NCBI GenBank assembly: GCA_030532415.1
Contig: JAUNLE010000003.1
Location: forward strand, 11,107-51,195
Reading direction: 5' to 3'
DNA length: 40,089 nucleotides
Origin: Coriobacteriia bacterium
GTDB lineage: Bacteria; Actinomycetota; Coriobacteriia; Coriobacteriales; JAEZZM01
Shown piece by piece: positions 22,078-40,089 of the stretch; position 1 is the first letter of the stretch, and the number at the start of each line of letters is the position of its first letter. The translations under genes were made by a program, and so were the position numbers. The notes beneath the pieces were generated by a model, which worked only from the letters and a program-made list of their open reading frames with translations, was not told where the DNA came from and did no database searches.

Positions 22078-24294
22078 CTAGATATTGGTATGTACTTTTT
22101 TAATTTCACACCTGAGTGCATTATATTTCCACGTGCCTATGACACCTTTGAAAATCTGGATATCGCAATCGGTCAGCTCATTTATATTTGATTCCTTATA
22201 GCCGCCAAAGCTCGGTTCTTTGAGCTCTTGCTCTGGATACCACCAGCCGTAATCAACGCTTACAACATTGGGGGCCATGCGAGCAAAAGCAAGCTTAAAG
22301 CGAGCAGAACCCACTTCGTTAGAGACTTCAACCCAATCCCCTTCATCCAATCCCAAAACGTGCGCTGTATCTGCGCTCATGGTAGCAAGTGGATGAGGAT
22401 AGACCTCTCTAAATTGTTTGCGATTATGATACATGCTTCCATTATAAGGTTGTTTTCTATTGCCGCTGATGAGATGAAGTCTAGGGCTTTGATTGATAGA
22501 ATTTTTCCCGCCAATTTCTACATATTCTTCTATTTCAACTTGTGGCAGTCTGCCAGCACCCAAGTTTTCAAACAGAGTGCTTGCAAGCTCTATTTTTCCG
22601 GAATAGGTAGAAAAACCGCGAAGTTTCGCTTCACCATCTTCTTGCAAGTACTTATAGTACTGTGGCGCTTGCGCATAGCTTCCATACTGCTCGAAATATT
22701 CTTCTGTAACATGAGCTTTCTCAAGACAGTATAAAATATCTTCTTTAAGCGTTTTACGAGGCCATTTGTCGGCTTGTCCCAAGCGCTTGCCTAATTCGTA
22801 ATAAACATCGTACTCATCTTTTCTTTCATGGAGTGGCTCTATAGCAGCAAGGCCACCATAGGCTAGGTTTGCAACTCCCCCATGAAGCTGTAGCATAGGG
22901 CGTTCTAAAACGCCTGTTACCGGCAAGATGTAGTCGGCAAGTGCAGTAGTCGATGTCATAGTATGCTCAAGACAAACGAGTAAATCCAAAGATTTGAGTG
23001 CCGATAAAACCTGTTCACTATTCGCATACGTTAAAAGCGGATTAGTTGCTTGTACAATTAAAGCTTTAATTGGATACGGCTCATGCTCGAGCATCGCTTT
23101 GAAAACTAAGTCCGGATGCGCTGAGGTCATATAACGCATTGGTAGTGCTAGCTCGTGTTTTTGAGTATAGCCCAAGACCTCTTCATATCCTTTAAAGCAT
23201 TGAAGGGGCGTAATGGCTGTATTAAGGCAGAAAGATTTAGCCTCATCAGTTAGCTCTTCGCCCATCTCGAGTGAAAGCTCACTTACAAAATCGGGCTTGG
23301 TGTTAAGTACACAGGCACCAGGCTTATCGATTTGTCCGCAAATGGCCCTTAATATGTTGATTGACCTATGAGTTGCAAGCGTATTTTTGCCAAGCTGGTC
23401 AACTCCACGCCCACTCACGATACAAAAAGATTGTGCATGAGCAAGCGTGTGAGCAAGCTTTTGAATAGAAGCTGCTGCAATCCCACATACATCAGCGGCA
23501 TACTGAAGTGTATAGGAGTCCACATAGGTCTTAAGCTCATCAAAGCCATAACAGTACTTTGAGACAAAATCCTTATCGTAGAGCTCCTCATAAATTATTT
23601 CTCTAATGAGCGCGAGCAATAAAACAGGATCCGTACCTGGGGTAATAGCGAGCCAATCATCACTTTTACGAGCAGTTTGCGTGTAGACAGGATCGACGGC
23701 AATGATCTTGGTATCGGTTTTGGCAAGTTTTAGAATAGTTCGCCAAAACATTGAATTATCTGATTGAGAGGGATTTGTACCCCAAAGCATAAGAACTTCT
23801 GTTTTGCCAAATTGAATATCGGGCTCTATAGTCCAGCCAAGTTGAATGGTTTCAGTCCAAATGCGTGGATTCCAGCATATTTGACCGATACCCATATTAT
23901 TTGGCGAGCCAAGTATATTCATGAATCTGTGGAGCGGCCAGTATACGGTATGAGGTCCTCCAATAGCACTTGCGATCGTTTGAGGACCATAGTGTTTGCT
24001 TAGTGATTCAATCTTTTCAGCAATTTCATCGAGCGCCTCATCCCACGTTATGCGCTCAAATTCGCCAGAGCCTCTTTTGCCGACACGACGCAGCGGGTAG
24101 TTAATTCGAGACTCGCCATATACATCTTCTAAAATGGTTTTCCATCTTCTGCAACCATTCATAATTTGCTTACTATATGGGTAGCGAGTTTCATCGGGCA
24201 CTAACTCGCTTACTACTCCATCTTCGACTTTAGCAATAAGACCACAAAGATAACCACAATATTGACAAACGGTCCGCTTGAACTGAGTTGTCAT
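22078..24294 (-). CDS. Molybdopterin oxidoreductase, DMSO reductase family, cytoplasmic type (MoOx-2)
   Basis: About 738-aa ORF with FS0 motif CQYCGYLC...C, RINYPLRRVGKRGSGEFERITWDEALDEIA and no Tat signal. I prefer the ATG at 24294 (AAAGG 6 nt upstream) over the TTG at 24300 in the ORF track. Confidence 0.9.
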   Translation of the reverse strand: MTTQFKRTVCQYCGYLCGLIAKVEDGVVSELVPDETRYPYSKQIMNGCRRWKTILEDVYGESRINYPLRRVGKRGSGEFERITWDEALDEIAEKIESLSKHYGPQTIASAIGGPHTVYWPLHRFMNILGSPNNMGIGQICWNPRIWTETIQLGWTIEPDIQFGKTEVLMLWGTNPSQSDNSMFWRTILKLAKTDTKIIAVDPVYTQTARKSDDWLAITPGTDPVLLLALIREIIYEELYDKDFVSKYCYGFDELKTYVDSYTLQYAADVCGIAAASIQKLAHTLAHAQSFCIVSGRGVDQLGKNTLATHRSINILRAICGQIDKPGACVLNTKPDFVSELSLEMGEELTDEAKSFCLNTAITPLQCFKGYEEVLGYTQKHELALPMRYMTSAHPDLVFKAMLEHEPYPIKALIVQATNPLLTYANSEQVLSALKSLDLLVCLEHTMTSTTALADYILPVTGVLERPMLQLHGGVANLAYGGLAAIEPLHERKDEYDVYYELGKRLGQADKWPRKTLKEDILYCLEKAHVTEEYFEQYGSYAQAPQYYKYLQEDGEAKLRGFSTYSGKIELASTLFENLGAGRLPQVEIEEYVEIGGKNSINQSPRLHLISGNRKQPYNGSMYHNRKQFREVYPHPLATMSADTAHVLGLDEGDWVEVSNEVGSARFKLAFARMAPNVVSVDYGWWYPEQELKEPSFGGYKESNINELTDCDIQIFKGVIGTWKYNALRCEIKKVHTNI

Positions 24295-24303
24295 TATCAA
24301 CCT

Positions 24304-25194
24304 TTACTTACTATTTAATGATTTGTAATTTCGGACACCACTAAGGTCTTCAAAAAGAAAACGCGTATCAATATGCGTTCTAACCCTATCCCAGTCCACG
24401 AATGAATCGAAAAGAAACTCAAGATAGTAATAAGTTGGTACGAGATTTTGTGAGAAATGTAAGACCTGAGTACAGCTGAAACAGTCGGTTACTAAGGCAT
24501 CGGCATTTGCATCAAGCGCTTCTTGTCCTTTATAGCGCGAAGCAGCTTCTCCCTCATCATATTTGCCAACTGCATTTAACAAAGAGCCACAGCATCTACT
24601 TGTCTTAGGGGTATGATCCAGTTCGACAAGGGCATCTGGCTTAAAGAGCGCACGAGCCGGTGCACCAAACTTTTGTTTCTTGAGATCTTTACATGCATCA
24701 AAAAACGCGAGCTTAGCATCCGTATTTCCAAGTTCTTTGTGGATAACTTCGGTATCTGTTTGACATCCAAGTTCTACTAACACTTGTGGAAGTGCAAGAA
24801 TTTCAATATCGTCGAGAATTTCGGCATCTTTAAATAAGCCACTAAATTCAATATTACAAGAGGGACAGGCTAAAACGATTTTTTTCACGCCATGATTATG
24901 AAGGGCCTCTAAGAGTCGCTCTCCATGTGACTTTCGAAAGCTTTTGTCATTTTCCCATCTAAGTAGTGAGCCGCAGCACACTAAGCTTATTCCTTGAACG
25001 ACATTCGCTTCACGTAAAATCTTATAGGTCTTGTCTACAATATCTAATGACATATTTAAGTATGCACAGCCTGGAAAGAAAATTGATTCAACGTGCTTTG
25101 CTTCAATCGGCTGTGTTTGTGAAATCGTATCCACATCACCATCAAAGCTCACTCTCGTATCAACGAGCACGTCATCAAAAGTGAATGTTTCCAT
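24304..25194 (-). CDS. HdrB-like protein with two CCG cysteine-rich domains
   Basis: 296-aa ORF with FFPGC, CCGSLL, CPSC, then FFDAC, CCGSLL, CFSC. RBS AAGGGGA. First gene of the locus-2 operon. Confidence 0.8.
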   Translation of the reverse strand: METFTFDDVLVDTRVSFDGDVDTISQTQPIEAKHVESIFFPGCAYLNMSLDIVDKTYKILREANVVQGISLVCCGSLLRWENDKSFRKSHGERLLEALHNHGVKKIVLACPSCNIEFSGLFKDAEILDDIEILALPQVLVELGCQTDTEVIHKELGNTDAKLAFFDACKDLKKQKFGAPARALFKPDALVELDHTPKTSRCCGSLLNAVGKYDEGEAASRYKGQEALDANADALVTDCFSCTQVLHFSQNLVPTYYYLEFLFDSFVDWDRVRTHIDTRFLFEDLSGVRNYKSLNSK

Positions 25195-25302
25195 TTTTTA
25201 TCCCCTTATGTATATGGTAAACGTGGCATTTGCAAAGCTCATGCACAAATATATCCCATCCATTTATCTCAATGTATAACGCACTATTAGATAAAGTCAA
25301 GT

Positions 25303-25310
25303 ATTATACA
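25303..25310 (-). promoter_or_regulatory. Possible extended -10 element (TGTATAAT) for the locus-2 operon
   Basis: The minus strand reads TGTATAAT about 110 nt upstream of the ATG at 25194. The -35 is poor, so this rests on the sequence pattern only. Confidence 0.3.
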
Positions 25311-25381
25311 AGTTAAGGGGTATTCATGAAGAAATGCTTGAGAACATCTAAACTATCAAGGTTATTCTCATTTGATTTATA

Positions 25382-27043
25382 CTAGCTCTCATCCTGTGCA
25401 AGTAATTTCATTTCTTTCACTTTTTTCTCAACTAAAGAAATTAACTCTTGCTGTGATTGGACTTCAAGTTTGTTATAGATATTATATCTATGTGATTTTA
25501 CTGTATTTTTTGATATAAATAATTTTTTATGAATAAACTCTGTATCGCGTCCATGTGAAAGCAACTCAAATACCTCAAGTTGTCTACTCGACAATCCCTG
25601 TTGTTGTGCAATTTCTTTAATGCTTTCTCGCCAGAACTGCGGTGCTTCATACTCTTCAAGTTCCTTATTTTTAAAATTAGCTGGATTCTCAAACGACGAA
25701 CGAACGAAAAAAGTAAATACAAACAAAGCAAACAGACTAAGCAAACAAAAAACCATCAAAGCAAAAGGACCTAGCTTCAATATAATCCAACCGACTATCC
25801 AGCCACATAACATACCAAAAGCATTCCAAAAACGGCCGTGAGCAAATTCTTGAAGCTTGGGAAGCTTATACGTTTGAATGATTAATGCAATTTTCCATAA
25901 GTTCAATATGTCATAACAAGCAAAACAAATTGCAAATAAAGCATACGTTAAATATTTATACTCATCAAAAATATAAGGAGTTAGCAATAGAACTAACACT
26001 TCAACGCTAAGCAATATTCTGAAAATATTGTCTATTGAAATATATTTAAAAAAATGAAACCAATATAACAATAATAGCGAACCTGGCAAAAGCATAGAGA
26101 TGTACAAATACTGGTTTTCTTCAGATGCAAAATTAGCTCCTATACAAAGCATTGTTGCGAAGACAAATGCATAGAAAAATATCTCTAGGCCAAAATAAGG
26201 AAAAGAAAAGACTTTCCCATCAGAGTCATAATTTTCAAGCTTAATGTAATTCGATACATATATATCAATTGAACGTGTTAATCTATTACGAACTTTTCTT
26301 TCTTCACAAATCTCGACTTTCACATTTTTGTTTTGCCAGTTTGAGACTTCCGTATGTTCTGTGACAGACAGGTCAAGAGGATCTTCGTTCGTCTTTTTAT
26401 CATTTTGCACAAATAATTTTAATTGGCTTTGCCGAAATACATGATATATCAAGATCAGAAAAACCAAGCAGACTAACAGTGCTAGTGAAACCACAAATTG
26501 ATTTTGATTAGATAACAAAATATACAGTAAGGAAGTTAATATTAAACCAAAACTTACAATATAAGCAATATCATCACGGTGGAGGGCTGTGAGAATATGA
26601 CCCATCGCAAGCAGAGCGGCTGCCAACGTAGTGCCTGTTAGATACCAAGATATAACTATGAAAGGAAGTGGCAAAATAACATTACCATTAAGAAAATTTA
26701 ATATTGAAGGCATAATAAAAAGTAAAAGTGATCCAATCATAAAGATATATGCAGGAATGAGAAACTTTTCAGTCTTTATTTTCTTATTAAAATGCCAAAA
26801 TATTGCTAGGAACACAGTTGATCCAAAAAAAGCAGACCCTTTTAAAATAATGCTGATATGCTCAAACTCAGTTGGATACACATTGAAAATATCAGTATGA
26901 TAAATCAGGAACATCAGGACCCAATAAAATGTAAAAATTAGAAAACCTAAAACATTATATGGGGTAATAAAACAAAAAACTCCATCAAAAGCCTCATTAT
27001 CTATAGAATTATTTGATTGAGTCACGTCTTTTTGCATTTTCAT
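25382..27043 (-). CDS. Polytopic-membrane LuxR-family one-component regulator
   Basis: 553-aa ORF with about 12-14 hydrophobic helices, interrupted by a soluble loop of about 80 aa. The C-terminal LSSRQLEVFELLSHGRDTEFIHKKLFISKNTVKSHRYNIYNKLEV is a LuxR HTH. Confidence 0.85.
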   Translation of the reverse strand: MKMQKDVTQSNNSIDNEAFDGVFCFITPYNVLGFLIFTFYWVLMFLIYHTDIFNVYPTEFEHISIILKGSAFFGSTVFLAIFWHFNKKIKTEKFLIPAYIFMIGSLLLFIMPSILNFLNGNVILPLPFIVISWYLTGTTLAAALLAMGHILTALHRDDIAYIVSFGLILTSLLYILLSNQNQFVVSLALLVCLVFLILIYHVFRQSQLKLFVQNDKKTNEDPLDLSVTEHTEVSNWQNKNVKVEICEERKVRNRLTRSIDIYVSNYIKLENYDSDGKVFSFPYFGLEIFFYAFVFATMLCIGANFASEENQYLYISMLLPGSLLLLYWFHFFKYISIDNIFRILLSVEVLVLLLTPYIFDEYKYLTYALFAICFACYDILNLWKIALIIQTYKLPKLQEFAHGRFWNAFGMLCGWIVGWIILKLGPFALMVFCLLSLFALFVFTFFVRSSFENPANFKNKELEEYEAPQFWRESIKEIAQQQGLSSRQLEVFELLSHGRDTEFIHKKLFISKNTVKSHRYNIYNKLEVQSQQELISLVEKKVKEMKLLAQDES

Positions 27044-27587: not shown

Positions 27588-29819
27588 ATGGAAGACAAGG
27601 GATACACATTTGTTCCCCATGAAAAGCCGTTTAAGTATACGGAAGACGGCTTAAAAGTAACACGGGGCAGCGCCTGGACTGGTCCTGGCTGTCACATTGG
27701 ATGCGGCGTACTTTTATACACTGATGAAAATGACAAGCTTGTCAAGGTAGAGGGAGATCCTGAAAACCCCTTTAACGAAGGCAGACTGTGTGCTCGTTGT
27801 TTAGCACTGCCAGAAACGGTTAACCACGAAGACCGCCTGAAGTACCCTATGAAACGAAGCAGAGACGACCGCGGTAAAGACAAGTGGGAACGCATTTCAT
27901 GGGAAGAAGCACTTGATACGATTGCCGACAAGCTCATTGATATCCGAGATACATATGGCCCTGAAACTGTGGCTTTCTATCAGGGTACTGGCCGTGATAT
28001 TGCTGCTTGGATTACCCGTTTATGCTGGTCATACGGTAGCCCAAACTACATCTTCGGTATGTCTGGTATGTCTTGCTACCTTCCTCGTGTTGCAGGATGT
28101 TTTGCAACGACTGGCTCATTTTGGTTAGGAGACTATTCACAACAATTTGCCCAGCGATACAAAGACCCTCGTTGGAAGCGTCCTGACGTTATTTTGTTGT
28201 GGGGTAATAACCCAGTCGTTTCCAATTCCGACGGTCTTTATGGTCACTGGGTTGTCGACCTCATGAAGATGGGAACGAAGTTTATTACCGTTGACCCTCG
28301 CCGCACCTGGTTAGCCAGCAAGTCAGAGCAATTCTGCCAAATCAGACCTGGAACCGACGCTGCGCTAGCAATGGGCATGCTTAAAGTCATTATTGATGAA
28401 GAACTCTACGACCATGACTTCGTAGACAAGTGGTGTTATGGTTTTGACGAACTTGCAGAGCGAGTAAGAGAATTTACTCCTGAAAAAGTAGAGCATATCA
28501 CTAATGTTCCTGCTGAGACGATGAAAGAAGCTGCTCGTTTGTTTGCTAAAGCAGACAGCGCAATCGTTCAATGGGGCCTTGCTGTTGATACTACAAAAGA
28601 GGCACTTCCTGCTTGTCAAGCAATTTCTGCACTTTTTGAAATCACTGGCAATATTGACAATCCTGGTGGAATGATTTCGCCTCCTTCAATTCTCTACTAC
28701 GCAGGTGGTTGGGGCGATGAGTTCTTAGATCCTGAGGTTGCAAAGAAACGTATTGGTCTTGATAAATATTCGCTCTTAAACTTTGGTTTCCAAGTTGCAT
28801 CAACCGACGAAATGCTTAAGACGATTGAAACGAAACAGCCCTATGAGATGCGCGCAGCTTGGTTGCAAACCACAAACTTCCTTACCTGTACTGCCCCAGA
28901 TCCTCATAGAACAATCAAGGCATTTAGAAACCTTGATTTCATCGTGGGCGTTGACCTCTTTATGACCCCAACTTTAATGGCACTTGCAGATATTGTTCTA
29001 CCTGCAGCAACCTATGCTGAGCGCGATGGTTTGCGAGTGGGCGACGGTGTACAACGCGGTGAGGCTATCAACAAAGTCACGCAAGTTGGAGAAGCTAAAT
29101 CTGATATGGAAATCAACCTGCTTTTAGGCAAAAGACTTCGCCCCGAAGCATGGCCATGGGATAACGTACGTGATATGTTCAGCTACATCCTTGAAGATGC
29201 AGGCGTAGGTATGAACTTTGATGAACTTCAAGAACACGCTCCTGCCTACATTCCTTTTGAATACTACAAGTATAAAAAAGGACTACTCAGAGCTGATGGA
29301 AAACCAGGATTTGAAACTCCTACAGGGCGTATCGAGCTGTGGAGTAACTTCTACAATAACGCCGGTCTTGACCCGCTCCCCTACTTTGAAGAACCAAGCC
29401 CTGGTCCACTTTCAACGCCAGAACTCCTTGATGAATATCCACTTGTGTTAACCACAGGCGCACGAGACTTCACCATTTTCCACTCTGAAAGCCGTCAGAT
29501 AGAGCACCTGCGTGCTGTTCACCCTGACCCAATCGTTCAGGTAAACCCAGCAACTTGTCGCACCTATGGCATCAGTGAGGGCGACTGGGTTTGGATTGAA
29601 AATGATCGTGGTCGCTGCAAGAGAAAAGTTGAAGAAACGTTAATTGTTGATGAGAATACTATTTCAACTGATCACGCATGGTGGTTCCCAGAAGGTGATC
29701 CAGAAAACCTCTACGATGTATTCGATTTGAACATTAACAATTTATTTCAATACATTCCTGGTAAATCTGGCTTCGGGTGTAACTACAAGACTCTGTTATG
29801 TAAGATTTACAAAGCTTAG
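27588..29819 (+). CDS. Molybdopterin oxidoreductase, DMSO reductase family, cytoplasmic type (MoOx-3)
   Basis: 743-aa ORF with RBS GGAGGAGG, RLKYPMKRSRDDRGKDKWERISWEEALDTIA and a normal C-terminal end TLLCKIYKA. The FS0 motif is incomplete (GPGCHIGCG...C). No Tat signal. Confidence 0.9.
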   Translation: MEDKGYTFVPHEKPFKYTEDGLKVTRGSAWTGPGCHIGCGVLLYTDENDKLVKVEGDPENPFNEGRLCARCLALPETVNHEDRLKYPMKRSRDDRGKDKWERISWEEALDTIADKLIDIRDTYGPETVAFYQGTGRDIAAWITRLCWSYGSPNYIFGMSGMSCYLPRVAGCFATTGSFWLGDYSQQFAQRYKDPRWKRPDVILLWGNNPVVSNSDGLYGHWVVDLMKMGTKFITVDPRRTWLASKSEQFCQIRPGTDAALAMGMLKVIIDEELYDHDFVDKWCYGFDELAERVREFTPEKVEHITNVPAETMKEAARLFAKADSAIVQWGLAVDTTKEALPACQAISALFEITGNIDNPGGMISPPSILYYAGGWGDEFLDPEVAKKRIGLDKYSLLNFGFQVASTDEMLKTIETKQPYEMRAAWLQTTNFLTCTAPDPHRTIKAFRNLDFIVGVDLFMTPTLMALADIVLPAATYAERDGLRVGDGVQRGEAINKVTQVGEAKSDMEINLLLGKRLRPEAWPWDNVRDMFSYILEDAGVGMNFDELQEHAPAYIPFEYYKYKKGLLRADGKPGFETPTGRIELWSNFYNNAGLDPLPYFEEPSPGPLSTPELLDEYPLVLTTGARDFTIFHSESRQIEHLRAVHPDPIVQVNPATCRTYGISEGDWVWIENDRGRCKRKVEETLIVDENTISTDHAWWFPEGDPENLYDVFDLNINNLFQYIPGKSGFGCNYKTLLCKIYKA

Positions 29820-29836
29820 AAGCATAGGAGATTAAG

Positions 29837-30169
29837 ATGGCTAAATATGGGATACTTGTTGACTTCGAATGGTGCACCGGTTGCCATACATGCGAAGTTG
29901 CCTGTCAAATGGAAAATCATCTTCCCACCGACCGTTTTGGAGTTAAGCTTGCTGCCTTAGGTCCTTGGGAAATAAGTAAGAATAACTGGCAACACGATAA
30001 CATTCCACTTTTTACAAATGAGTGTAATCTATGTGCTCATCGTGTAGCAAAGGGCAAAGAACCTACTTGCGTAAAGCACTGTCAATCAAAATGCCTTGTG
30101 TTTGGAACGGTTGATGAACTTAAAGAAAAGATGACTGATAAATCTCGTCAGATGCTCTTTATACCTTAA
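29837..30169 (+). CDS. Miniature Fe-S beta subunit (4Fe-4S ferredoxin-type)
   Basis: 110-aa ORF with RBS AGGAGA. It has CTGCHTCEVAC (group-I motif) and CNLCAHRVAKGKEPTCVKHC (group-IV-type motif of DmsB/PsrB-like proteins). The two central cluster motifs are absent. Confidence 0.75.
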   Translation: MAKYGILVDFEWCTGCHTCEVACQMENHLPTDRFGVKLAALGPWEISKNNWQHDNIPLFTNECNLCAHRVAKGKEPTCVKHCQSKCLVFGTVDELKEKMTDKSRQMLFIP

Positions 30170-30179
30170 ATCCTGATCC

Positions 30180-30226
30180 AAGAAAGAGAGTTTTATAACA
30201 AAGATAAAGCTCTCTTTCTTTTATTT
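30180..30226 (+). terminator. Rho-independent terminator
   Basis: Perfect 11-bp stem AAGAAAGAGAG / CTCTCTTTCTT with a 19-nt loop, followed by TTATTT. Confidence 0.6.
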
Positions 30227-30312
30227 AAAAAGGTACTATTATTAATTGAGGGGGAATTAGGTCTATGAGGATCTAATTTAAAAGGGAAATATAATAAAAA
30301 AGGGGAGAAAAA

Positions 30313-31101
30313 ATGGACAGCTCTGTCAATCATGGAAAAAATTTGGCCATGGCGTTTTTATTTGGAGGGACCTTTGCGCTTATTGGACAAATTATTTTAT
30401 CACTGGTAGCTCCTATTTCAGGACCGGCATTCGCAGGACCCATTACCTTACTGTGCTTTGGTGTTATCGCCTTAGTCATGTACATCCCAGGCATTCATCA
30501 CAAACTAGCACCATTAGCTGGCTTTGGTCTTATTTTGCCTTTTAATGGATTTGCAAGCGGTATTGCAGATGCATTTCAAGCAGGCTACCTTCCAAAAAAG
30601 GATTTCTCATCAGGTCTTCGCTCAGCTCTTAAACTTTTCTTTATAGTCATTGGTATCGGTGGACTTATAGACTTTCTTGCTGGAGTATTTGGATTTTACG
30701 TAAGTCTTCCGCAAATTACTCCGCCAGAAGCTCTTACTGGCGTTGCAGCTTTGATTGGAGCCTTCCTCGTAGGTGGAGGACTTTGCGTGGTGTTCCAGCT
30801 CTTTTTAGAGTTCACAAAGGTTCCTGTACCAGTGCTGCTTGTTTGCGGTTTAGCCTTAGGTGGTATTTGCACCTTATTCGGATTAACCGATATACTAGCT
30901 TCTCTTGGTGGTGGCGGATTTACCATCTTAGTTGTTGGAGCAGGACAGGCCGTCACTCTTACGACGATGCTTTTAATGCAAGGTCAACCCATGATGCTTT
31001 TGCTCGTGCTCTCAATTTTTGTAACCTTGTTCGTCGTGGGTATTATCTGCGCACTTGGAAATGCTGCTCTCAAACCATCTGACAATACAAAAACCGCATA
31101 G
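30313..31101 (+). CDS. Membrane protein with two tandem SpoVAC/SpoVAEB-like domains
   Basis: 262-aa ORF. AFLFGGTFALIGQ...AGFGLILPFNGFASG is followed by a second copy, AFLVGGGLCVVFQ...GGGGFTILVVGAGQA. Both resemble the SpoVAC/SpoVAEB signature (FLVGGxICxIGQ...AGAGxxVPxxGF, from memory). RBS AAGGGGAG. Confidence 0.55.
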   Translation: MDSSVNHGKNLAMAFLFGGTFALIGQIILSLVAPISGPAFAGPITLLCFGVIALVMYIPGIHHKLAPLAGFGLILPFNGFASGIADAFQAGYLPKKDFSSGLRSALKLFFIVIGIGGLIDFLAGVFGFYVSLPQITPPEALTGVAALIGAFLVGGGLCVVFQLFLEFTKVPVPVLLVCGLALGGICTLFGLTDILASLGGGGFTILVVGAGQAVTLTTMLLMQGQPMMLLLVLSIFVTLFVVGIICALGNAALKPSDNTKTA

Positions 31102-31138
31102 GATACCTTCTTGTAAAAACTAAAACGAATTTCTTTTG

Positions 31139-31168
31139 GCAGCTCTCTTTTCTGAGGGCTGCTTTTTT
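31139..31168 (+). terminator. Rho-independent terminator
   Basis: Stem GCAGCTCTC / GAGGGCTGC (9 bp, 1 mismatch) followed by T6. Confidence 0.65.
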
Positions 31169-31316
31169 ATACTCGCTCCTTTAAAAATTCAACCCAAATT
31201 TCAACCAAAAGTATCTTGTTTTTCAATTGAAAATAGGTTTCGGTTTTCTGCCGTAATGATATAGAATTGATACGGAAGTTTTACGTTAGCGGCAATGGGT
31301 TTAAACACACAGCGAA

Positions 31317-34076
31317 ATGACCCTCTATGATAGGTTCAGTATGTCGAACAACAATAAAGGAATAGAAGCTATTTCTTCAAGTCAAAAAAACATTACTCCT
31401 CTCCTAACCAAGTTTATTGCGCCTCAAGTTCCGAATAACTACTTTAAACGGGAAAATGTCTTTAAGGTTTTGCTTCAAGGTCTGAAACGTCGCTACACAC
31501 TGATAAGCGCGTCAGACGGATACGGAAAAAGCTCGGCTTTAGCTTATTTCAGTAAAACAATGAAGGAAGAAGGTTACCCCGTACTTTGGTTTAGTGTGGG
31601 CGAAAAAGACAATAATCCTGAATATTTTTGGACACAGTTTTTCTATTTGCTAGAGAATTTTGCTGAAACTACTCGTAATCAATCAAGTGACATAGCTCTT
31701 AGGACCACAAACGAAGAGCTAAGTTCCCAAGAACATGCGCATGATAGCCGAAAACTTAAACTAGCCAATGAGCTTAGTGCAATTGCCGGACAATTAAATG
31801 ACATCATTTTGATTATCGATAACTTTGAGCTTCTAAGCGAGGAAGATCTTGTAAGTGAGTTCATAGACTTTACCGCACTGTTCTCAAGCCACATACACAT
31901 TTATTTATCTTCACGCTATGCATTCAAGGTATCCTTGCTTAAGTCAAGTCACATAGAATTGTTGTACACGAATATTGATGAGCAAGATCTTGAATTTACG
32001 GTGGATGAAACCACCGACTTTGCCCAGCAATTCTATGGTTTAGATTTGAGTAAAGATGCCAGTAAACTCTTGTTAGAAAAAACGGGTAACTGGCCTTTCG
32101 CTATAAACATTTCTCTTGAGCAAGCTCAACGAACGGGCAATCCGCTTGAATTTTTAGAGAATCTTAACGCCTTAACCGAGCCGTTTAACAGCTTTTTTAA
32201 GCATAATGTTTTCGAGCAATTACCCAAAGACATTCAAGATTTTGTTATAAAAACATCCATCTTAGATACGCTATCCGTACAAATTTGTGATTATATATTA
32301 AATGAAAATAATTCTGAAGCGGCAATTTCGTATCTTTTTGATCGAAACATCGTCCAAAAATCTTATGACGACTATCAAGAACGATACTCCTATCGTCCAT
32401 TCTTTGAAGACTGGGTAAAGCATCAAATGACACAGCTCTTACCCGAACAAGCTCGTCGTCTTAACCTTTTAGCTTCTCAATGGTATCAGGGTCACAACGA
32501 TATCGTTAAAGCGGCAAAATTTATTACTCACGCTGTAAACAGAAAAGATCTTACTCGACTTGTAGCAAGCATCTTTCCTAGCCAGCCTATGAGCACGCTT
32601 GAGCTATATTACTCTCAAAAAGATATTCAATCCTTTGAAGACGTTACTGTTCAGTTTTGCCTTCTTGCTGCTTGGGCATATCTTTTATTAGCAAATATAA
32701 GCGATGCAGAATTTTGGATATACGAAGCCAAACAGCTATCAAAGGATAGTGAAAATTTACAGACTAAGGTTTTGATGCAGGTTATCCATGCTAAAAAATT
32801 AGGCTTGATTAATAAATTTAAAGAAAGCTTGGAAATTGTTGAAACCTTGCTTAATAATAAGAACCTAACTGAAGATACTGCTTTGCATATCATGGTGCTT
32901 AACTGTGCTGCTGAGGCTTATCATCAAAGTGGAAATATTACTGAAGCGATTAATTATTATCAAAATATTAGAACCTTATGCAAACACTATAACTTTACCT
33001 TTATTGAATCAATTAACGAATATGAATTTGCAAGCTTGTATTGTTCACTCGGGCAACTTGGTCAAGCAACTGAAATGTCTCGCTATACCGTTACCTCATT
33101 CCCAGTAGATTATCCCGCATACGCCTCTTCACTGGCACTCTTATCATATATTGAGCTTCTCCATGGTAATTATCAGGAATCTAAAAATCACCTGTGCGCA
33201 TCAACTGAGCATTTATCTGAGAATAACAACCTAGATATGTATATGGACGTACAGGCTACTATGGCGCTGTATTACTTGGCTACCTCAAACAAGACGAAAG
33301 CGCATCGGGTAATTCAAGAACTCAAGGCTTTTGCTTACACTTCAAATAAATCCATTCCGCGCGGCGCTTCTGCAAGAATTTACTTTTTAGAAGCCCTGTT
33401 AGCGTATGTGGATAACAAGCACTATTCAGAAATTCTTGAGATACGAAAGATATTTGAGGACTTCAAAATTACAAGTACTCACTATATTGAATCTGCTTGG
33501 AATATTCTGCTCATTGTGTCAGACAGCAATTCCGATCAAAAAGACAAGATTGAAAAACTTAGCAAAGCTATTGATGATACAGAAGTAAGCTCCTATAAAA
33601 TACTTTCAATTTTTGCCAGATTATTCTTAGCAGGAATATGGTTTGAAAATCATAAGTTTGCAAAGAGTTTTGAGCTTATCAAACAAGCCGTAGATATGGC
33701 ATTATCTGAACAAATCTATCTACCTTTTATTTTTATTTCTCAAAAACAAAGAAATATGTTCATCAAATATATTAATCAGGTGCGCCCAGAGTATGCACAG
33801 CTTGTCTTTATCAGAAGTTTCCTCCAAAGATCAAGTATGTTCGAGCAAGATGATTCTAAAGATATTTGCGAAACTGTATCGGTTCTTACAAAACGAGAAA
33901 AAGAGATTTTAGAGCTCTTACAAACAGGTTTTAACCAACAAGAGATCTCTCAAGAGCTACAGGTCTCGGTAAGTACTATCAAGTCTCATTTGTCACATAT
34001 TTACACGAAATTTAATGTGCATGGACAAAATGAATTGTTGGAGAAAACACAAAATTTAAAGGCACGCTGTAAATAA
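31317..34076 (+). CDS. MalT-like LuxR-family transcriptional regulator (second copy)
   Basis: 919-aa ORF with Walker A SASDGYGKSS (MalT-like APAGYGKT) and a long helical/TPR-like middle. The C-terminal LTKREKEILELLQTGFNQQEISQELQVSVSTIKSHLSHIYTKFNV is a LuxR HTH. The start codon has no obvious RBS. Confidence 0.85.
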   Translation: MTLYDRFSMSNNNKGIEAISSSQKNITPLLTKFIAPQVPNNYFKRENVFKVLLQGLKRRYTLISASDGYGKSSALAYFSKTMKEEGYPVLWFSVGEKDNNPEYFWTQFFYLLENFAETTRNQSSDIALRTTNEELSSQEHAHDSRKLKLANELSAIAGQLNDIILIIDNFELLSEEDLVSEFIDFTALFSSHIHIYLSSRYAFKVSLLKSSHIELLYTNIDEQDLEFTVDETTDFAQQFYGLDLSKDASKLLLEKTGNWPFAINISLEQAQRTGNPLEFLENLNALTEPFNSFFKHNVFEQLPKDIQDFVIKTSILDTLSVQICDYILNENNSEAAISYLFDRNIVQKSYDDYQERYSYRPFFEDWVKHQMTQLLPEQARRLNLLASQWYQGHNDIVKAAKFITHAVNRKDLTRLVASIFPSQPMSTLELYYSQKDIQSFEDVTVQFCLLAAWAYLLLANISDAEFWIYEAKQLSKDSENLQTKVLMQVIHAKKLGLINKFKESLEIVETLLNNKNLTEDTALHIMVLNCAAEAYHQSGNITEAINYYQNIRTLCKHYNFTFIESINEYEFASLYCSLGQLGQATEMSRYTVTSFPVDYPAYASSLALLSYIELLHGNYQESKNHLCASTEHLSENNNLDMYMDVQATMALYYLATSNKTKAHRVIQELKAFAYTSNKSIPRGASARIYFLEALLAYVDNKHYSEILEIRKIFEDFKITSTHYIESAWNILLIVSDSNSDQKDKIEKLSKAIDDTEVSSYKILSIFARLFLAGIWFENHKFAKSFELIKQAVDMALSEQIYLPFIFISQKQRNMFIKYINQVRPEYAQLVFIRSFLQRSSMFEQDDSKDICETVSVLTKREKEILELLQTGFNQQEISQELQVSVSTIKSHLSHIYTKFNVHGQNELLEKTQNLKARCK

Positions 34077-34243: not shown

Positions 34244-35857
34244 TTAATTTCTTTTAAGGAAAGGTTTATTTTTAAGAATGAAGACACTTCCTAGGAGTAC
34301 TGCTGCACTAAGGATGCTATACCAAGCAAAGTTGTTTGAAGCATCTCCTGTTTTAGGGAGTGCACTTGGCTTAGCCTTGACTACTTGTTGTTGTGCACCT
34401 TCTGAATAGAAGTCATCTCGAGCATAACGGTCTGATGAAGGGCGTTTAATAGCACTTTCATCTGCAGCTTTCCAGACTGCAGTTAGGCTGTGATCTGAAG
34501 TAAATTCATACTCTTGTCCTGCGTAGTATCTAGAACCTTCCCAGTAAGCAAATTCATAACCTTGGCGCTTAGGACCTTCTGGCATTCTGACTTTCACACC
34601 ATCTTTTACAGGAATTTTTGCTTGGTCTTTATAAGTAATGCCATTTATTACAAGCTCATAACCTGGGAAGTTAAAGGTAAGGATGTGGATGTCACTTGAG
34701 CTAGAGCTTCCCGTTCCTTTATCTACGAAAGTTGCATTCAGTTTTACACTAAAATCAAAGGATTCTCTATCTTTATCAGCTTTGTATGTGTATGTCACAG
34801 TAGTAGGCGTAGCTGCATCAAAAGTTAAGGTGTTATCGGACGCAGATACATTATCCGTACTCCAGTCAACTGCATTAGAAAAATTAAAATTGCCAGGTAA
34901 AGAAGAGAGGTCGAATTTAAGAGTATTCTTATCAACTTCGATAGAATACTCTTGATCAGATGCGTCGAAATCGTCAGAATCAAGATTTAAATTATTACTT
35001 ACATTCAAGCTTGTTAATTGATTGTTTGCGCAACCCAAATACCACAAAGACTCGTTTTTACTTACGACTAAACTGGTTAACTGATTGTTGGCGCATTCCA
35101 ACTTTTTCAATGCGCTGTTTTGACGGACGTCAAGCTCGGTCAACTGATTGTCGGAACAATACAATTCCTCCAACGCCGTGTTTTGACTGACGTCAAGCTC
35201 GGTCAACTGATTGTCGGAGCAATACAATTCCTCCAACGCCGTGTTTTGACTGACGTCAAGCTCGGTCAACTGATTGGAGTCACACTCCAACCCTATCAAT
35301 GCTGGATGTCGGGTGACGTCCAGCTTGTTCAATTTATTTTCATCGCAATACAAATATTCCAATGCTGTGTTATTACTGAGGTCTAGTTCAGTCAACTGAT
35401 TATCAGAGCATCTCAGATATATCAATGCAGTATTTTCGCTAACATTTAACTCAGTCAGCCGCTGTTTGGGGCAAGAAAAATGTCTCAAGCTCTTGTTATT
35501 GCTGACATCTAGCTCTTCTAACAAATTGCCGCGACACTGCAATAATTCCAGTGCTGTATTTTGGCTGACGTCTAGACTAGCTAACTGATTTTCCCAGCAT
35601 TTCAATTGCTTCAATGCGGTATTTTTGCTCACGTCCAGACTGGTTAGTGAGTTTTGACTACAATCAAGAGTAGTAAGTTTAGTAAAATGTTCCACTCCCG
35701 TGAGGTCAGCAATGCCTTTATTATCAACGAAAATCGCTTCTACTGCATCTCTCTCCTCTTGAGAGAGCGTCCCGTCAGTATTCGTGTCGAAAGTTTTTAC
35801 ATACTCTCTAAATTTCTCATCTGGAAACGCGTCTTCAATAACAACGCCCCCCCCCAT
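34244..35857 (-). CDS. Internalin-like LRR surface protein with LPXTG sorting signal (mature part; out of frame with its signal peptide)
   Basis: 537-aa ORF with about 11 LRR units of 21-22 aa (LTELDVSQNTALEELYCSDNQ) and a Listeria-Bacteroides (Flg_new) repeat (GYEFAYWEG...LTAVW). The C-terminus is LPKTGD, a hydrophobic helix and KRN. The ORF-track start MGGG lies inside a G9 tract and has no signal peptide. Confidence 0.85.
   Translation of the reverse strand: MGGGVVIEDAFPDEKFREYVKTFDTNTDGTLSQEERDAVEAIFVDNKGIADLTGVEHFTKLTTLDCSQNSLTSLDVSKNTALKQLKCWENQLASLDVSQNTALELLQCRGNLLEELDVSNNKSLRHFSCPKQRLTELNVSENTALIYLRCSDNQLTELDLSNNTALEYLYCDENKLNKLDVTRHPALIGLECDSNQLTELDVSQNTALEELYCSDNQLTELDVSQNTALEELYCSDNQLTELDVRQNSALKKLECANNQLTSLVVSKNESLWYLGCANNQLTSLNVSNNLNLDSDDFDASDQEYSIEVDKNTLKFDLSSLPGNFNFSNAVDWSTDNVSASDNTLTFDAATPTTVTYTYKADKDRESFDFSVKLNATFVDKGTGSSSSSDIHILTFNFPGYELVINGITYKDQAKIPVKDGVKVRMPEGPKRQGYEFAYWEGSRYYAGQEYEFTSDHSLTAVWKAADESAIKRPSSDRYARDDFYSEGAQQQVVKAKPSALPKTGDASNNFAWYSILSAAVLLGSVFILKNKPFLKRN
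35116..35276 (-). repeat. Near-identical 63-bp tandem repeat (about 2.5 copies) inside the LRR array
   Basis: Units 35116-35178 and 35179-35241 differ at 2 of 63 positions. A third partial unit is identical for 35 nt. Each unit encodes one 21-aa LRR. Confidence 0.9.
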
Positions 35858-35966
35858 TTTCAGAAGCGAGGGCGGTCTGTGCCATCATAGATAGCACGCC
35901 AAATACCAGTGCAAGAACCATTGCCAAAATCGGCATTACCGCACTGAATGTCTTTCTACTCTCCAT
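35835..35966 (-). other. 5' segment encoding the signal peptide of the LRR protein, in a different frame from the main ORF
   Basis: My manual translation from the ATG at 35966 (RBS GAAAGGGGAAAG upstream) gives MESRKTFSAVMPILAMVLALVFGVLSMMAQTALASENGGGRCY-stop. One fewer G would read ...ASENGGGVVIEDAFPDEK, in frame with the 537-aa ORF. Confidence 0.75.
35847..35855 (-). repeat. Homopolymeric G9 tract (C9 on the plus strand): candidate slipped-strand phase-variation switch
   Basis: Nine consecutive C at 35847-35855. The tract lies exactly at the junction between the signal-peptide frame and the mature LRR frame. Confidence 0.85.
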
Positions 35967-36074
35967 TACAACTTTCCCCTTTCAATTCAGCTCGTTCTAT
36001 TCTACTCCTTTTTATATAAATAGTCTCTAGTAATGGCCTAAGGTCATAATGGCTTGCTCATCGGCTTGCAAAAC

Positions 36075-36147: not shown

Positions 36148-37083
36148 TTATTCATATCTTGGTTCAGCATGTTCCTTGTAAATTTGTAAGAACTTTTCAT
36201 CGCCCTTAGGTAAGCGGTCATGATACTTCTGTTGACCTTTAATCAACATCATATCGTTAGTCCATACCACTAAGAAGCGTAAGATTAAACCACCAATGAG
36301 TACGAGTACTGCAGCAAGAACGCCAAGTGCCTCGCTTCCCATGAGATAGAACACGAGAGGTATTACAAGACCACATGCAACAAGACCAAGCCAGAATGCA
36401 AGTGAGAAATCGCCTTTTACCCACTTAAGCGCTGCTTTCTTAGCAACTACATTACCTGCACCAATGAGCAAGCCTAGGTAGATACCAACAATCATAAGTT
36501 CGAAAACAATAAGACCGGTATCCACTGAGTGGAAAATACCTAGTGCACGTTCAACCAATTCAGGATTGCTTTCAAGAAGCTTGCCAACACTTAAGGAGTG
36601 AGCTGCACATCCTGTTGAAAGAGCAGATACGAAGAACAAAATTGGTAGTGCTGGTGTTGACCAGAATGGGTGTGCTTTCAAACTAGCCAATAAAACACCG
36701 GTGTAAACCATGATAGCTGCACCAGAAATTCCGGATACTACTAATAATGGTACGCGTGCTCCAGCCAACATTGCAAAAGGTTCCCAATATGAAATCAAGA
36801 GGAGGAAACTTGCGATCAAAGCGATTGAAAGCAAGGTAGCACCCCACATGATGATAGCAGTTGGTCTTAAGAAGACTCGATAAAATACGGTTGGTTGACC
36901 CAACTCAAATACTAAGAAGAAACAACCCACACCAAGCGCTAAGAGCGACACAATAATTGGAGCAATAAAGAGCTCAATTGGGAAAGCCATGAAGTATAAG
37001 CACATAGCAAGGAACAGAATCGCTCCTCCAAGGCCACCCAAGAATAGATATATGGCGATTGGCCAAGTCCAATAACGTTTCAT
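36148..37083 (-). CDS. NrfD/PsrC/DmsC-family integral membrane quinol-interacting subunit
   Basis: 311-aa ORF with about 8 TM helices. The N-terminal WTWPIAIYLFLGGLGGA is the NrfD-family signature. It starts 2 nt after the beta-subunit stop. Confidence 0.9.
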   Translation of the reverse strand: MKRYWTWPIAIYLFLGGLGGAILFLAMCLYFMAFPIELFIAPIIVSLLALGVGCFFLVFELGQPTVFYRVFLRPTAIIMWGATLLSIALIASFLLLISYWEPFAMLAGARVPLLVVSGISGAAIMVYTGVLLASLKAHPFWSTPALPILFFVSALSTGCAAHSLSVGKLLESNPELVERALGIFHSVDTGLIVFELMIVGIYLGLLIGAGNVVAKKAALKWVKGDFSLAFWLGLVACGLVIPLVFYLMGSEALGVLAAVLVLIGGLILRFLVVWTNDMMLIKGQQKYHDRLPKGDEKFLQIYKEHAEPRYE

Positions 37084-37085
37084 GG

Positions 37086-37664
37086 TTATAACTGACCTCC
37101 TCTATTAGGAATATAGTAAACCTGAGGATCAGTTCCCAACTCTTCTAAAAGTCGGACCGTCTCAACAGAGTTAATAATCTTTGAAACCTCGCTATTTGGA
37201 TCATCTAAATCACCAAAGATACGAGCTTTTTGGTGACAAGTCTTTACGCAATAAGGAGTGAAATCTGGATCTACATCTCTTTCATCCTTGCAGAAGGTAC
37301 ATTTTCTAGCATATTGCTCAAGTCTTGGAACCATGTGTGAGGAATCTCTTGAGCTATAAGGACAAGCGTTAATGCAAACTTTACAGCCCATGCATTTTGC
37401 ACTATCAATCCAAACAGTTCCATCTTCTTCTTGCATGCTTGCACCGGTTGGACAACATGGAACACATGGAGGGTTTTCACAATGCATGCAAATTAAAGGT
37501 AACCAATTCTCATGCACGTTAGGGAAAACACCTTTCACTCCCTCAGATACCACTGGATTGTAGGTGATATCCATAGGTAAATCATTCCACGTTCTACATG
37601 CTACGGTGCAAGAATGACATCCGATGCAACGCGTTTGATCCATAATCATAACTAAACGAGTCAT
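37086..37664 (-). CDS. 4x[4Fe-4S] electron-transfer beta subunit (DmsB/PsrB/NrfC-like)
   Basis: 192-aa ORF with four Cys groups: CIGCHSCTVAC, CMHCENPPCVPCCP, CMGCKVCINACP and CTFCKDER...CVKTC. Its ATG abuts the alpha-subunit TAA. Confidence 0.9.
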   Translation of the reverse strand: MTRLVMIMDQTRCIGCHSCTVACRTWNDLPMDITYNPVVSEGVKGVFPNVHENWLPLICMHCENPPCVPCCPTGASMQEEDGTVWIDSAKCMGCKVCINACPYSSRDSSHMVPRLEQYARKCTFCKDERDVDPDFTPYCVKTCHQKARIFGDLDDPNSEVSKIINSVETVRLLEELGTDPQVYYIPNRGGQL

Positions 37665-40089
37665 TTATTCTTGCCCCCCTATCAATTCGCGTGTCTCCAG
37701 GTCATAACGAAGACCTGTCTCCATATCAATCAAATTATTTTGTTCAGGATCGAAGGCATAACCTGAATATAAATCGTAGTAAACGCCTTCGCTATCGTAG
37801 AGCCAACCAGAATCGATATCATAGAAGTAACCAGTAGCTTCTTGATACGCAATCTTTTGGCTATCGTCCCATAAAATTCCCTCTGGTAATTCAACGCCAG
37901 GTCCTGGAACGTATGGAATAGGATCAATTGCAAGTTTTGCGTCTGAAGGCATTACGGAAACACCCGGAGTACTTGCAGAACCTGGGATTGACCAAGTAGT
38001 GTCTGACTTAGCCTTCATTTCTGAGTCTTTAACCTTGTAGACCTTACATAAAAGACCACGGTTTGCCCAGCTACCGCCGATTGGATCGCAGTGATCGTCA
38101 TCAACAGAAGTTAAAACGTTAGCATTTGAAATTAAGCAACCAAATGGAGCTTCTTTATCAGCGGTGCCAAGTTCTGGATACCACCAACCACGCTGTACGA
38201 AGATAACATTTTCAGCAACTGCAGGCTCAACATTAGCTCTTTGTCTAATGCGTCCACGTCTGGTCTCAATCCAATACCAATCGCCATCTTTAATCTTGTA
38301 CTTCTTAGCGGTTGCATTGTTAACCGTGAAGTATGGATCGTGATAGAGGTATCTAACTGAGGCAAGTTGGAAGTGCTCTGAGTGGTGATATGGCATGAAA
38401 GCGCCGCCCGTGGTAAGGGTAAGAGGATACTCTTTAGCTAACTCAGGATGATCAATGTCATTTTCTGCTGAAGGAATATAGGTTGGAAGTGCTGGATAAC
38501 CTAGTTCAGCTAAGACTGAAGACTTCAATTCAACCTTACCTGATGCAGTGCAGAAGCCCTTGTCGCCATATTTGTAATATCTAAGTGGTGGGTAGTAGTA
38601 ACGATACTTTTCAACGAACTCATCATAACTATTTACCTGATAACCAAGTGGATAGATGAGGTAGTAGAATACTTCTTCCTCATTGTCCCATGGCCACATT
38701 TCTTCTGGCTGTCCAGTAGCAAGCGCAAGGTCTTTCCAGAAGGTATAGTCGGTACGGCGCTCATACATTGGATCGATTGCTCGTTGTGAACAAATGATTG
38801 AGTCAGTAACACCGTAGTTTGTGTGAACAGTAGGTCTTTCTAGCGCACCTGCGATTGGAATGACGTAGTCAGAGAAAATTGCAGTAGGAGTCATCCAATA
38901 ATCACAAGTAACTAAGAATTCAACTTTCTTCAGAGCCTCTAAGGTCATCTTTGAGTCTCCGTATGAGTTGATTGGGTTGGTAGCTGAAACTAAGAGTGCG
39001 CGAACTTGATAAGGATCGCCCGTTAATATTGCCTTGAAAACAGATGGTCCGTGAGCTTCGCACATCCACTCTGCAGTTGGTGCCTTACCCCAGGTTCTCT
39101 TTGCAATATCTGCAATTTTTTGATATCCAGGCCATGAAGTAAGTTTGAATTTGTCTGAACCAATTTGCTTTGCTTTTTGCTCTTCAGGAAGCCAGTCATT
39201 AGCCTCGAGCTCTTCGTCGGTAACATAACCGAAGCTTGGTCCAGGCATAAGGTCTCCACCAGGACAATCAAGGTTACCGGTAATAGCACGCATAATTGCA
39301 CGGGCATGCATACCTGTACCACTGGTAGGTCCTAGTTGGTCGTTGTTTGAACCCCATTGAATGTTTCCTGGGGTGTTGGTTGCATACAGACGAGCTGCTT
39401 CTCTAATCTTTTGTGGCTCAAGCCAAGTAATTTCAGAAGCCCACTCTGGTGTATATTGCTTCATGTGCTCATAGAGTTCTGGGAAACCAATGCACCAATT
39501 CTCAACGAAAGCTCGATCATAAAGACCTTCAAAAATAATTACATGGAGCATTGCAAGAGCTAAAGCAGTATCAGAACCTGGTTTCAAAGGTAACCATAAA
39601 TCAGCTTTTGAAGCGGTTTCAGAGAAACGAGGATCAACAACGATGAGCTTTAAACCATTTTTTTGAAGATCGGTATAGCCATGCATACCAGGAAGTCCAG
39701 ATGCGCCTGGGTTGTATCCCCAAAGAATTACGCATTTAGAAGAACCAAGGTCGGTCTCAAAAGGACTCCAGCCAGAAACTGCTGTCTCAACCATGAATGT
39801 TGGAATCCAACAAAGAAGTGCGTTGTGGAATGAGTTTGGTGAACCAAACATATTCATAAAACGTCTACGAGACCAGTCTTCTGTTCTTAAAGTACCACCA
39901 GCTGTCGCAACAGCCTCGGCTCCGCTTTCTTCTCTAATTTGTAAGAGCTTTTCGGCAATTTCTTGAATGGCTTGTTCCCATGAGATTCTTTCCCATTTGT
40001 TTTCGCCACGTTCGCCTTTTCTTTTAAGCGGATAGTTAATACGAGAAGGATGATCAATATGTTGTAGTGCTATATTACCTCTGCAACAT
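37665..40089 (-). CDS. Molybdopterin oxidoreductase catalytic alpha subunit (MoOx-4), 5'-truncated by the window edge
   Basis: The ORF-track start at 39857 is internal. I translated the same frame upstream and it stays open to 40089 (...CCRGNIALQHIDHPSRINYPLKRKGERGENKWERISWEQAIQEIAEKLLQIREESGAEAVATAGG...). The MopB core ends at RGLLCKVYKV and is followed by a 121-aa tail. Confidence 0.9.
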   Translation of the reverse strand, partial: CCRGNIALQHIDHPSRINYPLKRKGERGENKWERISWEQAIQEIAEKLLQIREESGAEAVATAGGTLRTEDWSRRRFMNMFGSPNSFHNALLCWIPTFMVETAVSGWSPFETDLGSSKCVILWGYNPGASGLPGMHGYTDLQKNGLKLIVVDPRFSETASKADLWLPLKPGSDTALALAMLHVIIFEGLYDRAFVENWCIGFPELYEHMKQYTPEWASEITWLEPQKIREAARLYATNTPGNIQWGSNNDQLGPTSGTGMHARAIMRAITGNLDCPGGDLMPGPSFGYVTDEELEANDWLPEEQKAKQIGSDKFKLTSWPGYQKIADIAKRTWGKAPTAEWMCEAHGPSVFKAILTGDPYQVRALLVSATNPINSYGDSKMTLEALKKVEFLVTCDYWMTPTAIFSDYVIPIAGALERPTVHTNYGVTDSIICSQRAIDPMYERRTDYTFWKDLALATGQPEEMWPWDNEEEVFYYLIYPLGYQVNSYDEFVEKYRYYYPPLRYYKYGDKGFCTASGKVELKSSVLAELGYPALPTYIPSAENDIDHPELAKEYPLTLTTGGAFMPYHHSEHFQLASVRYLYHDPYFTVNNATAKKYKIKDGDWYWIETRRGRIRQRANVEPAVAENVIFVQRGWWYPELGTADKEAPFGCLISNANVLTSVDDDHCDPIGGSWANRGLLCKVYKVKDSEMKAKSDTTWSIPGSASTPGVSVMPSDAKLAIDPIPYVPGPGVELPEGILWDDSQKIAYQEATGYFYDIDSGWLYDSEGVYYDLYSGYAFDPEQNNLIDMETGLRYDLETRELIGGQE

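Follow-up and report, generated by a model that had tools for sequence, protein, structure and literature searches.

Why would a gene for a surface protein that ends in a cell-wall sorting signal lack a signal peptide, while the short reading frame directly upstream encodes little else and stops just beyond a run of nine guanines? This question is raised by a locus at 34244-35966 on the minus strand of a 40,089-nt stretch of a Coriobacteriia genome (the whole stretch analyzed, hereafter the window), where a 43-codon open reading frame (ORF) and a 537-codon ORF encoding a leucine-rich repeat (LRR) protein with a C-terminal LPXTG motif meet at a G9 homopolymer. An initial annotation of this DNA had described the arrangement as a candidate phase-variation switch that is currently OFF, as may be inferred from the sequence. 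Based on the reading frames, the homologues and the composition of the tract, we consider the best explanation to be a single gene split at a hypermutable G-tract and OFF as assembled, a judgment that we hold with evenly balanced confidence.

The anatomy of the split is plain. Translation from the ATG at 35966 on the minus strand yields MESRKTFSAVMPILAMVLALVFGVLSMMAQTALASENGGGRCY followed by a stop; the G9 run begins at nt 112 of this frame, and three codons (CGT TGT TAT) separate it from a TGA at 35835-35837. The annotated course of this frame, through a signal peptide into nine G and to a stop three codons on, is thereby confirmed from the sequence and the ORF list. The 537-codon ORF opens with an ATG at 35857-35855, the G of which is supplied by the first G of the run, and its frame lies at +1 (equivalently -2) relative to the signal-peptide ORF. 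It had been correctly seen to continue from the tract, but its label as the -1 frame does not hold; it is the loss of one nucleotide or the gain of two in the DNA that restores the frame. The frame arithmetic is exact: in silico deletion of one G (G8) produces a 573-amino-acid (aa) fusion reading through ...ALASENGGGVVIEDAFPDEKF..., and addition of two (G11) a 574-aa fusion, as the initial annotation had predicted, while G10 leads to early stops and G9 to 43 aa. Changes in repeat number thus toggle the in silico product between full-length and truncated forms. The 537-codon body contains no further lesions, which suggests that the frameshift is recent or reversible.

The initiation signals are distributed just as unevenly. 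The upstream ORF begins with an MESRK n-region, a 24-residue hydrophobic core (maximum 3.03 in a 12-residue Kyte-Doolittle window) and an A-L-A cleavage motif that places the cut between ALA and SEN, and this region aligns with the signal peptides of homologues. A Shine-Dalgarno (SD)-like sequence, GAAAGGGGA, precedes it; its duplex with the anti-SD sequence has an energy of -8.1 kcal/mol, close to the median for the 22 further window genes that were scored, so that the ribosome-binding site reported there is present, although average rather than good. The downstream ATG at 35857 has no SD (anti-SD duplex +0.4 kcal/mol), the 537-codon frame offers no other start codon, and a stop lies 11 codons upstream. 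The LRR/LPXTG ORF was also rightly described as having no signal peptide of its own even though it ends in a sortase signal. Lacking an SD and a signal peptide and closed by a stop only 11 codons upstream, it would not be usefully expressible alone, a conclusion that the sequence supports.

To what kind of protein do the two pieces belong? The LRR region matches Pfam LRR_4 (E 7e-21), its DNA contains nine 63-nt copies in register, and its translation consists of recurring L..L.C..N.L..LDVS.N units that form a cysteine ladder. The preceding cap carries the invariant FPD..F motif common to homologues. In a PDB search the closest solved structure is Listeria internalin-J (InlJ; 3bz5, E 3e-62), followed by InlA (E 1e-13) and InlB. 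The LPKTG sorting signal is accompanied by a hydrophobic stretch that scores 2.41, and Pfam Gram_pos_anchor reaches 18.1 bits at this position, slightly below its cut-off of 20; residues 331-440 are covered by no family match. The family architecture is therefore that of an internalin-like, cysteine-ladder LRR adhesin that is sortase-anchored. It shares with InlJ the 21-residue LRRs with a conserved cysteine and the LPXTG anchoring, but the match is confined to the LRR region, and we know of no homopolymer switch for InlJ. The order signal peptide, cap and tandem LRRs is present in the repaired frame only. These features support the view that the locus would encode a single LRR protein of the canonical secreted and sortase-anchored type, whose gene a frameshift interrupts precisely at the G-tract. 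The 537-aa database protein without a signal peptide would then be a mis-annotated fragment of a 573-aa precursor, and genes divided in this way will escape automated pipelines if the upstream part has only ~40 codons.

Within the repeat array, two adjacent 63-nt LRR units at 35157-35276 are near-identical, both encoding QLTELDVSQNTALEELYCSDN, with an exact 57-nt tandem duplication at 35157/35220. This near-identity indicates a recent duplication or gene conversion. LRR copy number is a possible second source of variation, and the paired units are a likely breakpoint for k-mer assemblers.

Comparison with homologues further supports the joining of the two ORFs. Using a crude hydrophobicity threshold to call signal peptides, we found one in about 104 of 119 homologues, with several more falling narrowly under the threshold, and the FPD cap lies within the first 90 residues in about 80 of the 119. 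The 537-aa ORF of the window is an outlier in this set, with its cap at residue 11 and no signal peptide, while the fused protein is collinear with the homologue N-termini in the alignment. We conclude that the two ORFs are one gene, frameshifted at the tract. The position of the G-tract corresponds to a short linker that is variable in length and sequence among homologues, and Gly3 or Gly4 variants should therefore be tolerated.

Close relatives that might carry other tract lengths are scarce. When the fused protein was searched against 5.8 billion protein clusters, the window's own ORF was the sole copy recovered, and the next matches reached at most 57% identity over the LRRs. A query restricted to the N terminus returned a single homologue, P0121, at 45% identity. 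Scanning of GTDB genomes gave two 54% paralogues (one sheep-rumen Clostridia metagenome-assembled genome, MAG). In JGI metagenomes, a DNA pattern with a variable gap gave 0 matches, and a protein scan gave one 32% C-terminal match. Exact-product look-ups of the 537-aa, 43-aa and 919-aa products returned no record, and all eight window proteins looked up (8/8) are singleton 90%-identity clusters among ~15 billion proteins. The LRR gene is absent at the corresponding position in two relatives that share a reductase gene with the window (a Raoultibacter-like locus, L006, and a second locus, L007), and L006 has no G/C run of at least 7. In the P0121 gene (Logan ERR14039184 contig, L004, 121-1873), signal peptide and cap are contiguous. 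That gene adjoins a phage-integrase-family gene, a hint that such LRR adhesin genes travel on mobile elements.

We then considered whether a tract of this kind could be expected by chance. The window has a G+C content of 40.9%, and the C9 run of the plus strand is the sole G/C run longer than 6 in its 40,089 nt, in agreement with the annotated absence of any longer one; the runner-up is a C6 at 37674. About 0.04 G/C runs of at least 9 are expected from base composition, and the observed G8 count was matched in only 2 of 100 dinucleotide-preserving shuffles. In the reading frame, the tract specifies three Gly residues that link the cleavage site to the LRR cap. Among Gly codons, GGG is used least here (32/662, or 4.8%, in 25 long ORFs), and the other four Gly-Gly-Gly tripeptides in the window use GGT, GGA and GGC, with none of the four containing GGG; a Gly3 linker written GGG-GGG-GGC is therefore not expected from the codon usage of this genome. 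The tract is not a by-product of base composition or codon usage. With a G9 run composed of the least-used Gly codon and a linker that should tolerate changes in length, the locus has what looks, from these features, like the makeup of a slipped-strand contingency locus.

These data lead us to propose that the locus is one gene for a secreted, sortase-anchored InlJ-type LRR adhesin in which the length of the poly-G run, within the linker that follows the cleavage site, would set the reading frame. With G8 or G11 (3n+2), translation from ATG 35966 would yield the full 573- or 574-aa precursor, to be exported and anchored via LPKTG. With the assembled G9, ribosomes would stop after 43 codons, the 43-codon product would be the sole one expected, and the 1.6-kb body would be silent, since it carries neither its own ribosome-binding site nor its own export signal; some full-length product may still leak through if tRNA-Gly re-pairs at +1 on the rare GGG codons or RNA polymerase slips. 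A G9 run exceeds the ~7-8 nt from which G/C runs slip at a high rate and is by its nature prone to strand slippage in replication, so that stochastic, reversible ON/OFF changes in length would be expected in the population, as at a contingency locus. We infer that tract length truly varies and that this variation is put to use. If the switch is real, a poorly sampled Eggerthellaceae-like commensal would present an adhesin that binds host or matrix in a stochastically varying manner, much like pathogens and bifidobacteria, a behavior that would bear on colonization and immune evasion.

The closest precedent is found in Bifidobacterium breve UCC2003, in which the sortase-dependent pilin genes bbr_0113a/b and bbr_1889a/b have their Sec signal and LPXTG motif in two ORFs split by a G-tract (Penno et al. 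2022, PMC9187656). The second ORF there has an annotated start but neither an SD nor a signal peptide, and in-frame tract lengths fuse the ORFs; tract variation was measured and attributed to replication slippage, pilus-like structures were formed by strains locked in frame, and the mouse gut enriched for in-frame lengths (PMC9187656). Both cases involve a Gram-positive gut actinobacterium, the same succession of Sec-signal ORF, G-tract and LPXTG ORF, and a database sequence that represents the OFF (or minority) length. The B. breve tracts, however, are G10-G12 and lie in the pilin gene that heads an operon equipped with a dedicated sortase, whereas the window gene is a G9-containing, stand-alone LRR adhesin gene, flanked by a convergent LuxR gene on one side and an NrfD operon on the other. 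The window ORFs scanned contain no sortase or pilin domain, with ORFs below 150 aa inspected by eye only and a 182-aa ORF (16348-16896) compared with NCBIfam only. Tract variation in B. breve was measured experimentally, while that of the window locus is predicted from sequence. If the proposed switch is true, the B. breve type of signal peptide/G-tract/LPXTG switch would reach beyond pilins to stand-alone adhesins, and beyond one actinobacterial class to a second; no new mechanism would be opened up.

Other systems resemble the locus in part. In Listeria monocytogenes, a 5' poly(A) tract in inlA is in frame as A7 and truncates the product to 8 aa as A6, with reversion about 1000-fold above the point-mutation rate and polymorphism across 106 isolates (Orsi et al. 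2010, PMC2831843). There, as proposed for the window gene, gain or loss of one base in a 5' homopolymer switches expression of an LPXTG-anchored internalin-family LRR protein, although the inlA tract is a 6-7-nt poly(A) at codons 2-4, inside the signal peptide, and the window tract is a 9-nt poly(G) after the cleavage site; the 106 inlA isolates compare with one genome for the window. Gardnerella, likewise a member of the Actinomycetota with homopolymer-associated surface proteins, has homopolymers of at least 8 bp next to genes for LPXTG and InlB-B-repeat surface proteins, for which slipped-strand mispairing has been proposed and length variation demonstrated for one gene (PMC11287997). Its tracts are genome-wide (median of 20 G/C tracts per genome) and mostly upstream of ORFs, in contrast to the one intragenic tract in 40 kb seen here. 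Campylobacter jejuni, Neisseria and Haemophilus also use G/C homopolymers of ~8-11 nt in the 5' part of surface-structure genes for ON/OFF frameshifting, and in C. jejuni nine is the commonest length among phase-variable polyG tracts (PMC3401435). All three are Gram-negative and pathogenic, carry many such loci in each genome and have had their switching rates measured, unlike the window locus. The initial annotation regarded such a switch as not well documented in Coriobacteriia-like Gram-positives. A literature search that combined Eggerthella with phase variation and homopolymeric tracts found no paper, as did a search for the read set SRR24915805, but the same anatomy has been demonstrated in the gut actinobacterium B. 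breve (PMC9187656), which narrows the novelty. We suggest, tentatively, that the locus could be the first case of an internalin-like LRR adhesin switched ON and OFF by a homopolymer in a gut anaerobe related to the Eggerthellaceae (Coriobacteriia), from an unusually low-GC lineage that has been sampled once.

Several observations weigh against a phase-variable gene. At the position of the tract, a Gly run is absent from all homologues inspected, and no adhesin orthologue was found in the 5.8 billion protein clusters, the GTDB representatives or the JGI metagenomes. This is the single G/C tract of such length in the 40-kb window, which thus shows no sign of a wider phasome. Sequence of the organism comes from one NCBI contig and from fragments in a single read set (SRR24915805), and no Logan contig recovered from that set spans the tract; L001 comes closest and breaks off at 36018, 163 nt away. 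The last point bears on the accuracy of the assembly. Systematic homopolymer error as a general property of the assembly can be rejected: twelve A/T runs of 7-8 nt sit within intact long ORFs, and two Logan contigs, assembled independently from SRR24915805, match the window at 100% identity across 2,637 and 5,317 nt (7,954 in total), including T8, T7, A7 and C6 runs. A second frameshift considered in a 730-aa molybdopterin ORF was also rejected, as this ORF runs off the window end in an open frame. A miscall confined to the tract, such that the real or dominant genome is G8 (or G11) with an intact gene and G9 is a consensus error or a choice from mixed reads, is conceivable because the Logan contigs stop short of it and because database lengths in B. 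breve and Illumina reads of G-tracts can be unreliable. Long G runs are a known weak spot, and the Logan contigs from the sole read set are short (2.6-7.2 kb), suggesting modest coverage. In B. breve, the database length (G11) was the minority in cultures (G12 about 60%, G11 about 37%), and the same study described an Illumina "G's end" artefact on G-tract templates and explicitly warned about annotated G-tract lengths (PMC9187656). On the other hand, every other homopolymer checked fits intact ORFs and was reproduced by the independent assembly. Consensus errors at a 9-mer are, moreover, uncommon in short-read assemblies. We consider such a miscall unlikely; it would be compatible with a switch and would, we think with the same reserve, remove the claim of a current OFF state alone.

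If the G9 length is taken as real, the frameshift could instead be a recent and fixed loss of function, in which one base was inserted into a pre-existing G8 in an incipient pseudogene and the tract plays no part in regulation. Inactivating indels arise most commonly in homopolymers, no tract occupies the corresponding position in the homologues, and the gene is strain-specific with no orthologue found, as expected of dispensable accessory surface proteins. However, its 537 codons are free of stops, its signal peptide, SD and sorting signal are intact, and a G8 run of the rarest Gly codon would itself need an explanation; G9 runs also revert at a high rate, so that a fixed state would be mechanistically hard to keep. 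On balance we find this account improbable. A different possibility is recoding, in which RNA polymerase slips on the G9/C9 run, or tRNA-Gly slips by +1 on GGG GGG GGG in the ribosome, giving a constant low output of the full-length protein from the G9 allele. Perfect re-pairing after a +1 shift is possible, and GGG is a rare, slowly decoded codon here, but we found no recoding stimulator beside the slippery run: the flanking RNA has no stimulatory structure (minimum-free-energy z-score -0.97), and the A-site codon after the run, CGT, is neither a stop nor rare, leaving programmed recoding unsupported. Productive transcriptional slippage in bacteria has mainly been documented for A/T runs. The original GenBank annotation of the B. 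breve genome had considered re-framing at the equivalent G-tract, and the basis proved to be replication slippage (PMC9187656). Recoding is thus, in our estimate, quite improbable. Hardly credible is the separate intracellular expression of the 537-aa ORF from the annotated ATG 35857, with the 43-codon ORF unrelated to it. NCBI nr does list the 537-aa product as a protein, but this start has neither an SD nor an alternative, an LPXTG sorting signal is useless to a protein that is not exported, and the 43-codon ORF supplies exactly the missing signal peptide, in register with the homologues. An invertible promoter or inverted-repeat switch was rejected, as no inverted repeats were found; a search of the window against Rfam detected no RNA family. 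Slipped-strand switching of a single split gene, the explanation that we prefer, concerns the features whose coordinates are collected in the table.

Features of the split adhesin gene in window coordinates
Feature	Position	Strand	Basis or remark
Shine-Dalgarno-like GAAAGGGGA	35975..35983	minus	8 nt upstream of ATG 35966
Upstream 43-codon ORF (signal peptide, SEN GGG RCY, stop)	35835..35966	minus	sequence, ORF list
Sec-type signal peptide coding region, 34 codons	35865..35966	minus	read from sequence
G9 homopolymer (plus-strand C9)	35847..35855	minus	frameshift point, putative slippage tract
Tract flanks			CGCTTCTGAAAAT...CGTTGTTATTGAAG
537-codon ORF (mature adhesin: cap, LRRs, inter-repeat region, B-repeat-like segment, LPKTG sorting signal)	34244..35857	minus	
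LRR N-terminal cap (VIEDAFPDEKFREYV...), PF23952-like	35684..35839	minus	Pfam LRR_EndoS E 2.2e-07
About 11 LRRs, 21 residues each (63-nt period), conserved Cys as in InlJ	34976..35683	minus	
Weak Listeria-Bacteroides (InlB B-type) repeat	34481..34645	minus	Pfam Flg_new E 9e-4, 19.7 bits; curated cut-off 27
Cell-wall sorting signal: LPKTG, hydrophobic SILSAAVLLGSVFIL, basic tail KNKPFLKRN	34247..34360	minus	

The taxonomic setting of the locus was examined through its neighbors. At 82% identity, a 743-aa molybdopterin oxidoreductase (27588-29819) matches a cluster with members from Raoultibacter timonensis and R. phocaeensis, and it shares 66-69% identity with proteins of Eggerthellaceae MAGs. 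The description of the window as Coriobacteriia-like is borne out by this one gene, by way of its match to the Raoultibacter (Eggerthellaceae) cluster, but a G+C content of 41% is atypical for Eggerthellaceae; the Raoultibacter-like locus L006 has 60%, and its other syntenic genes are 34-63% identical to those of the window. Two explanations offer themselves: the window belongs to a relative of the Eggerthellaceae with strikingly low G+C, or horizontal transfer brought in the reductase operon. The window (27588-31101) and L006 (10001-13384) share a conserved gene order, in which the molybdopterin oxidoreductase gene is followed by genes for a 110-aa 4Fe-4S protein and a SpoVAC/SpoVAEB-like membrane protein, and the SpoVAC/SpoVAEB-like protein might be a membrane subunit of the reductase in a presumably non-sporulating lineage.

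Elsewhere in the window, a 479-aa AAA_5 (dynein-related/MoxR-McrB-like) ATPase gene is followed by a gene for a 586-aa protein (4217-7419, minus strand), which has no match in Pfam, NCBIfam or PADLOC. Cofactor- or selenium-related genes occupy 58-1909 and 18815-22069 and encode a DUF169 and ferredoxin fusion, a DUF2064 protein, an MbdU-like/DUF5714 protein and a CobW GTPase, together with a TrsS-like radical SAM protein (E 1e-109, under the NCBIfam cut-off). Four molybdopterin oxidoreductase loci lie within the 40 kb (7773-13453, 22078-27043, 27588-34076 and 36148-40089). At two of them, 4Fe-4S subunits are encoded next to the reductase, together with NrfD in one case and with the SpoVAC-like protein in the other, and upstream of a third lies a small ferredoxin-like ORF. 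Each of the four adjoins a gene for a LuxR/MalT-type regulator of 553-919 aa, and this array of reductases and regulators resembles the xenobiotic-reductase islands of Eggerthellaceae.

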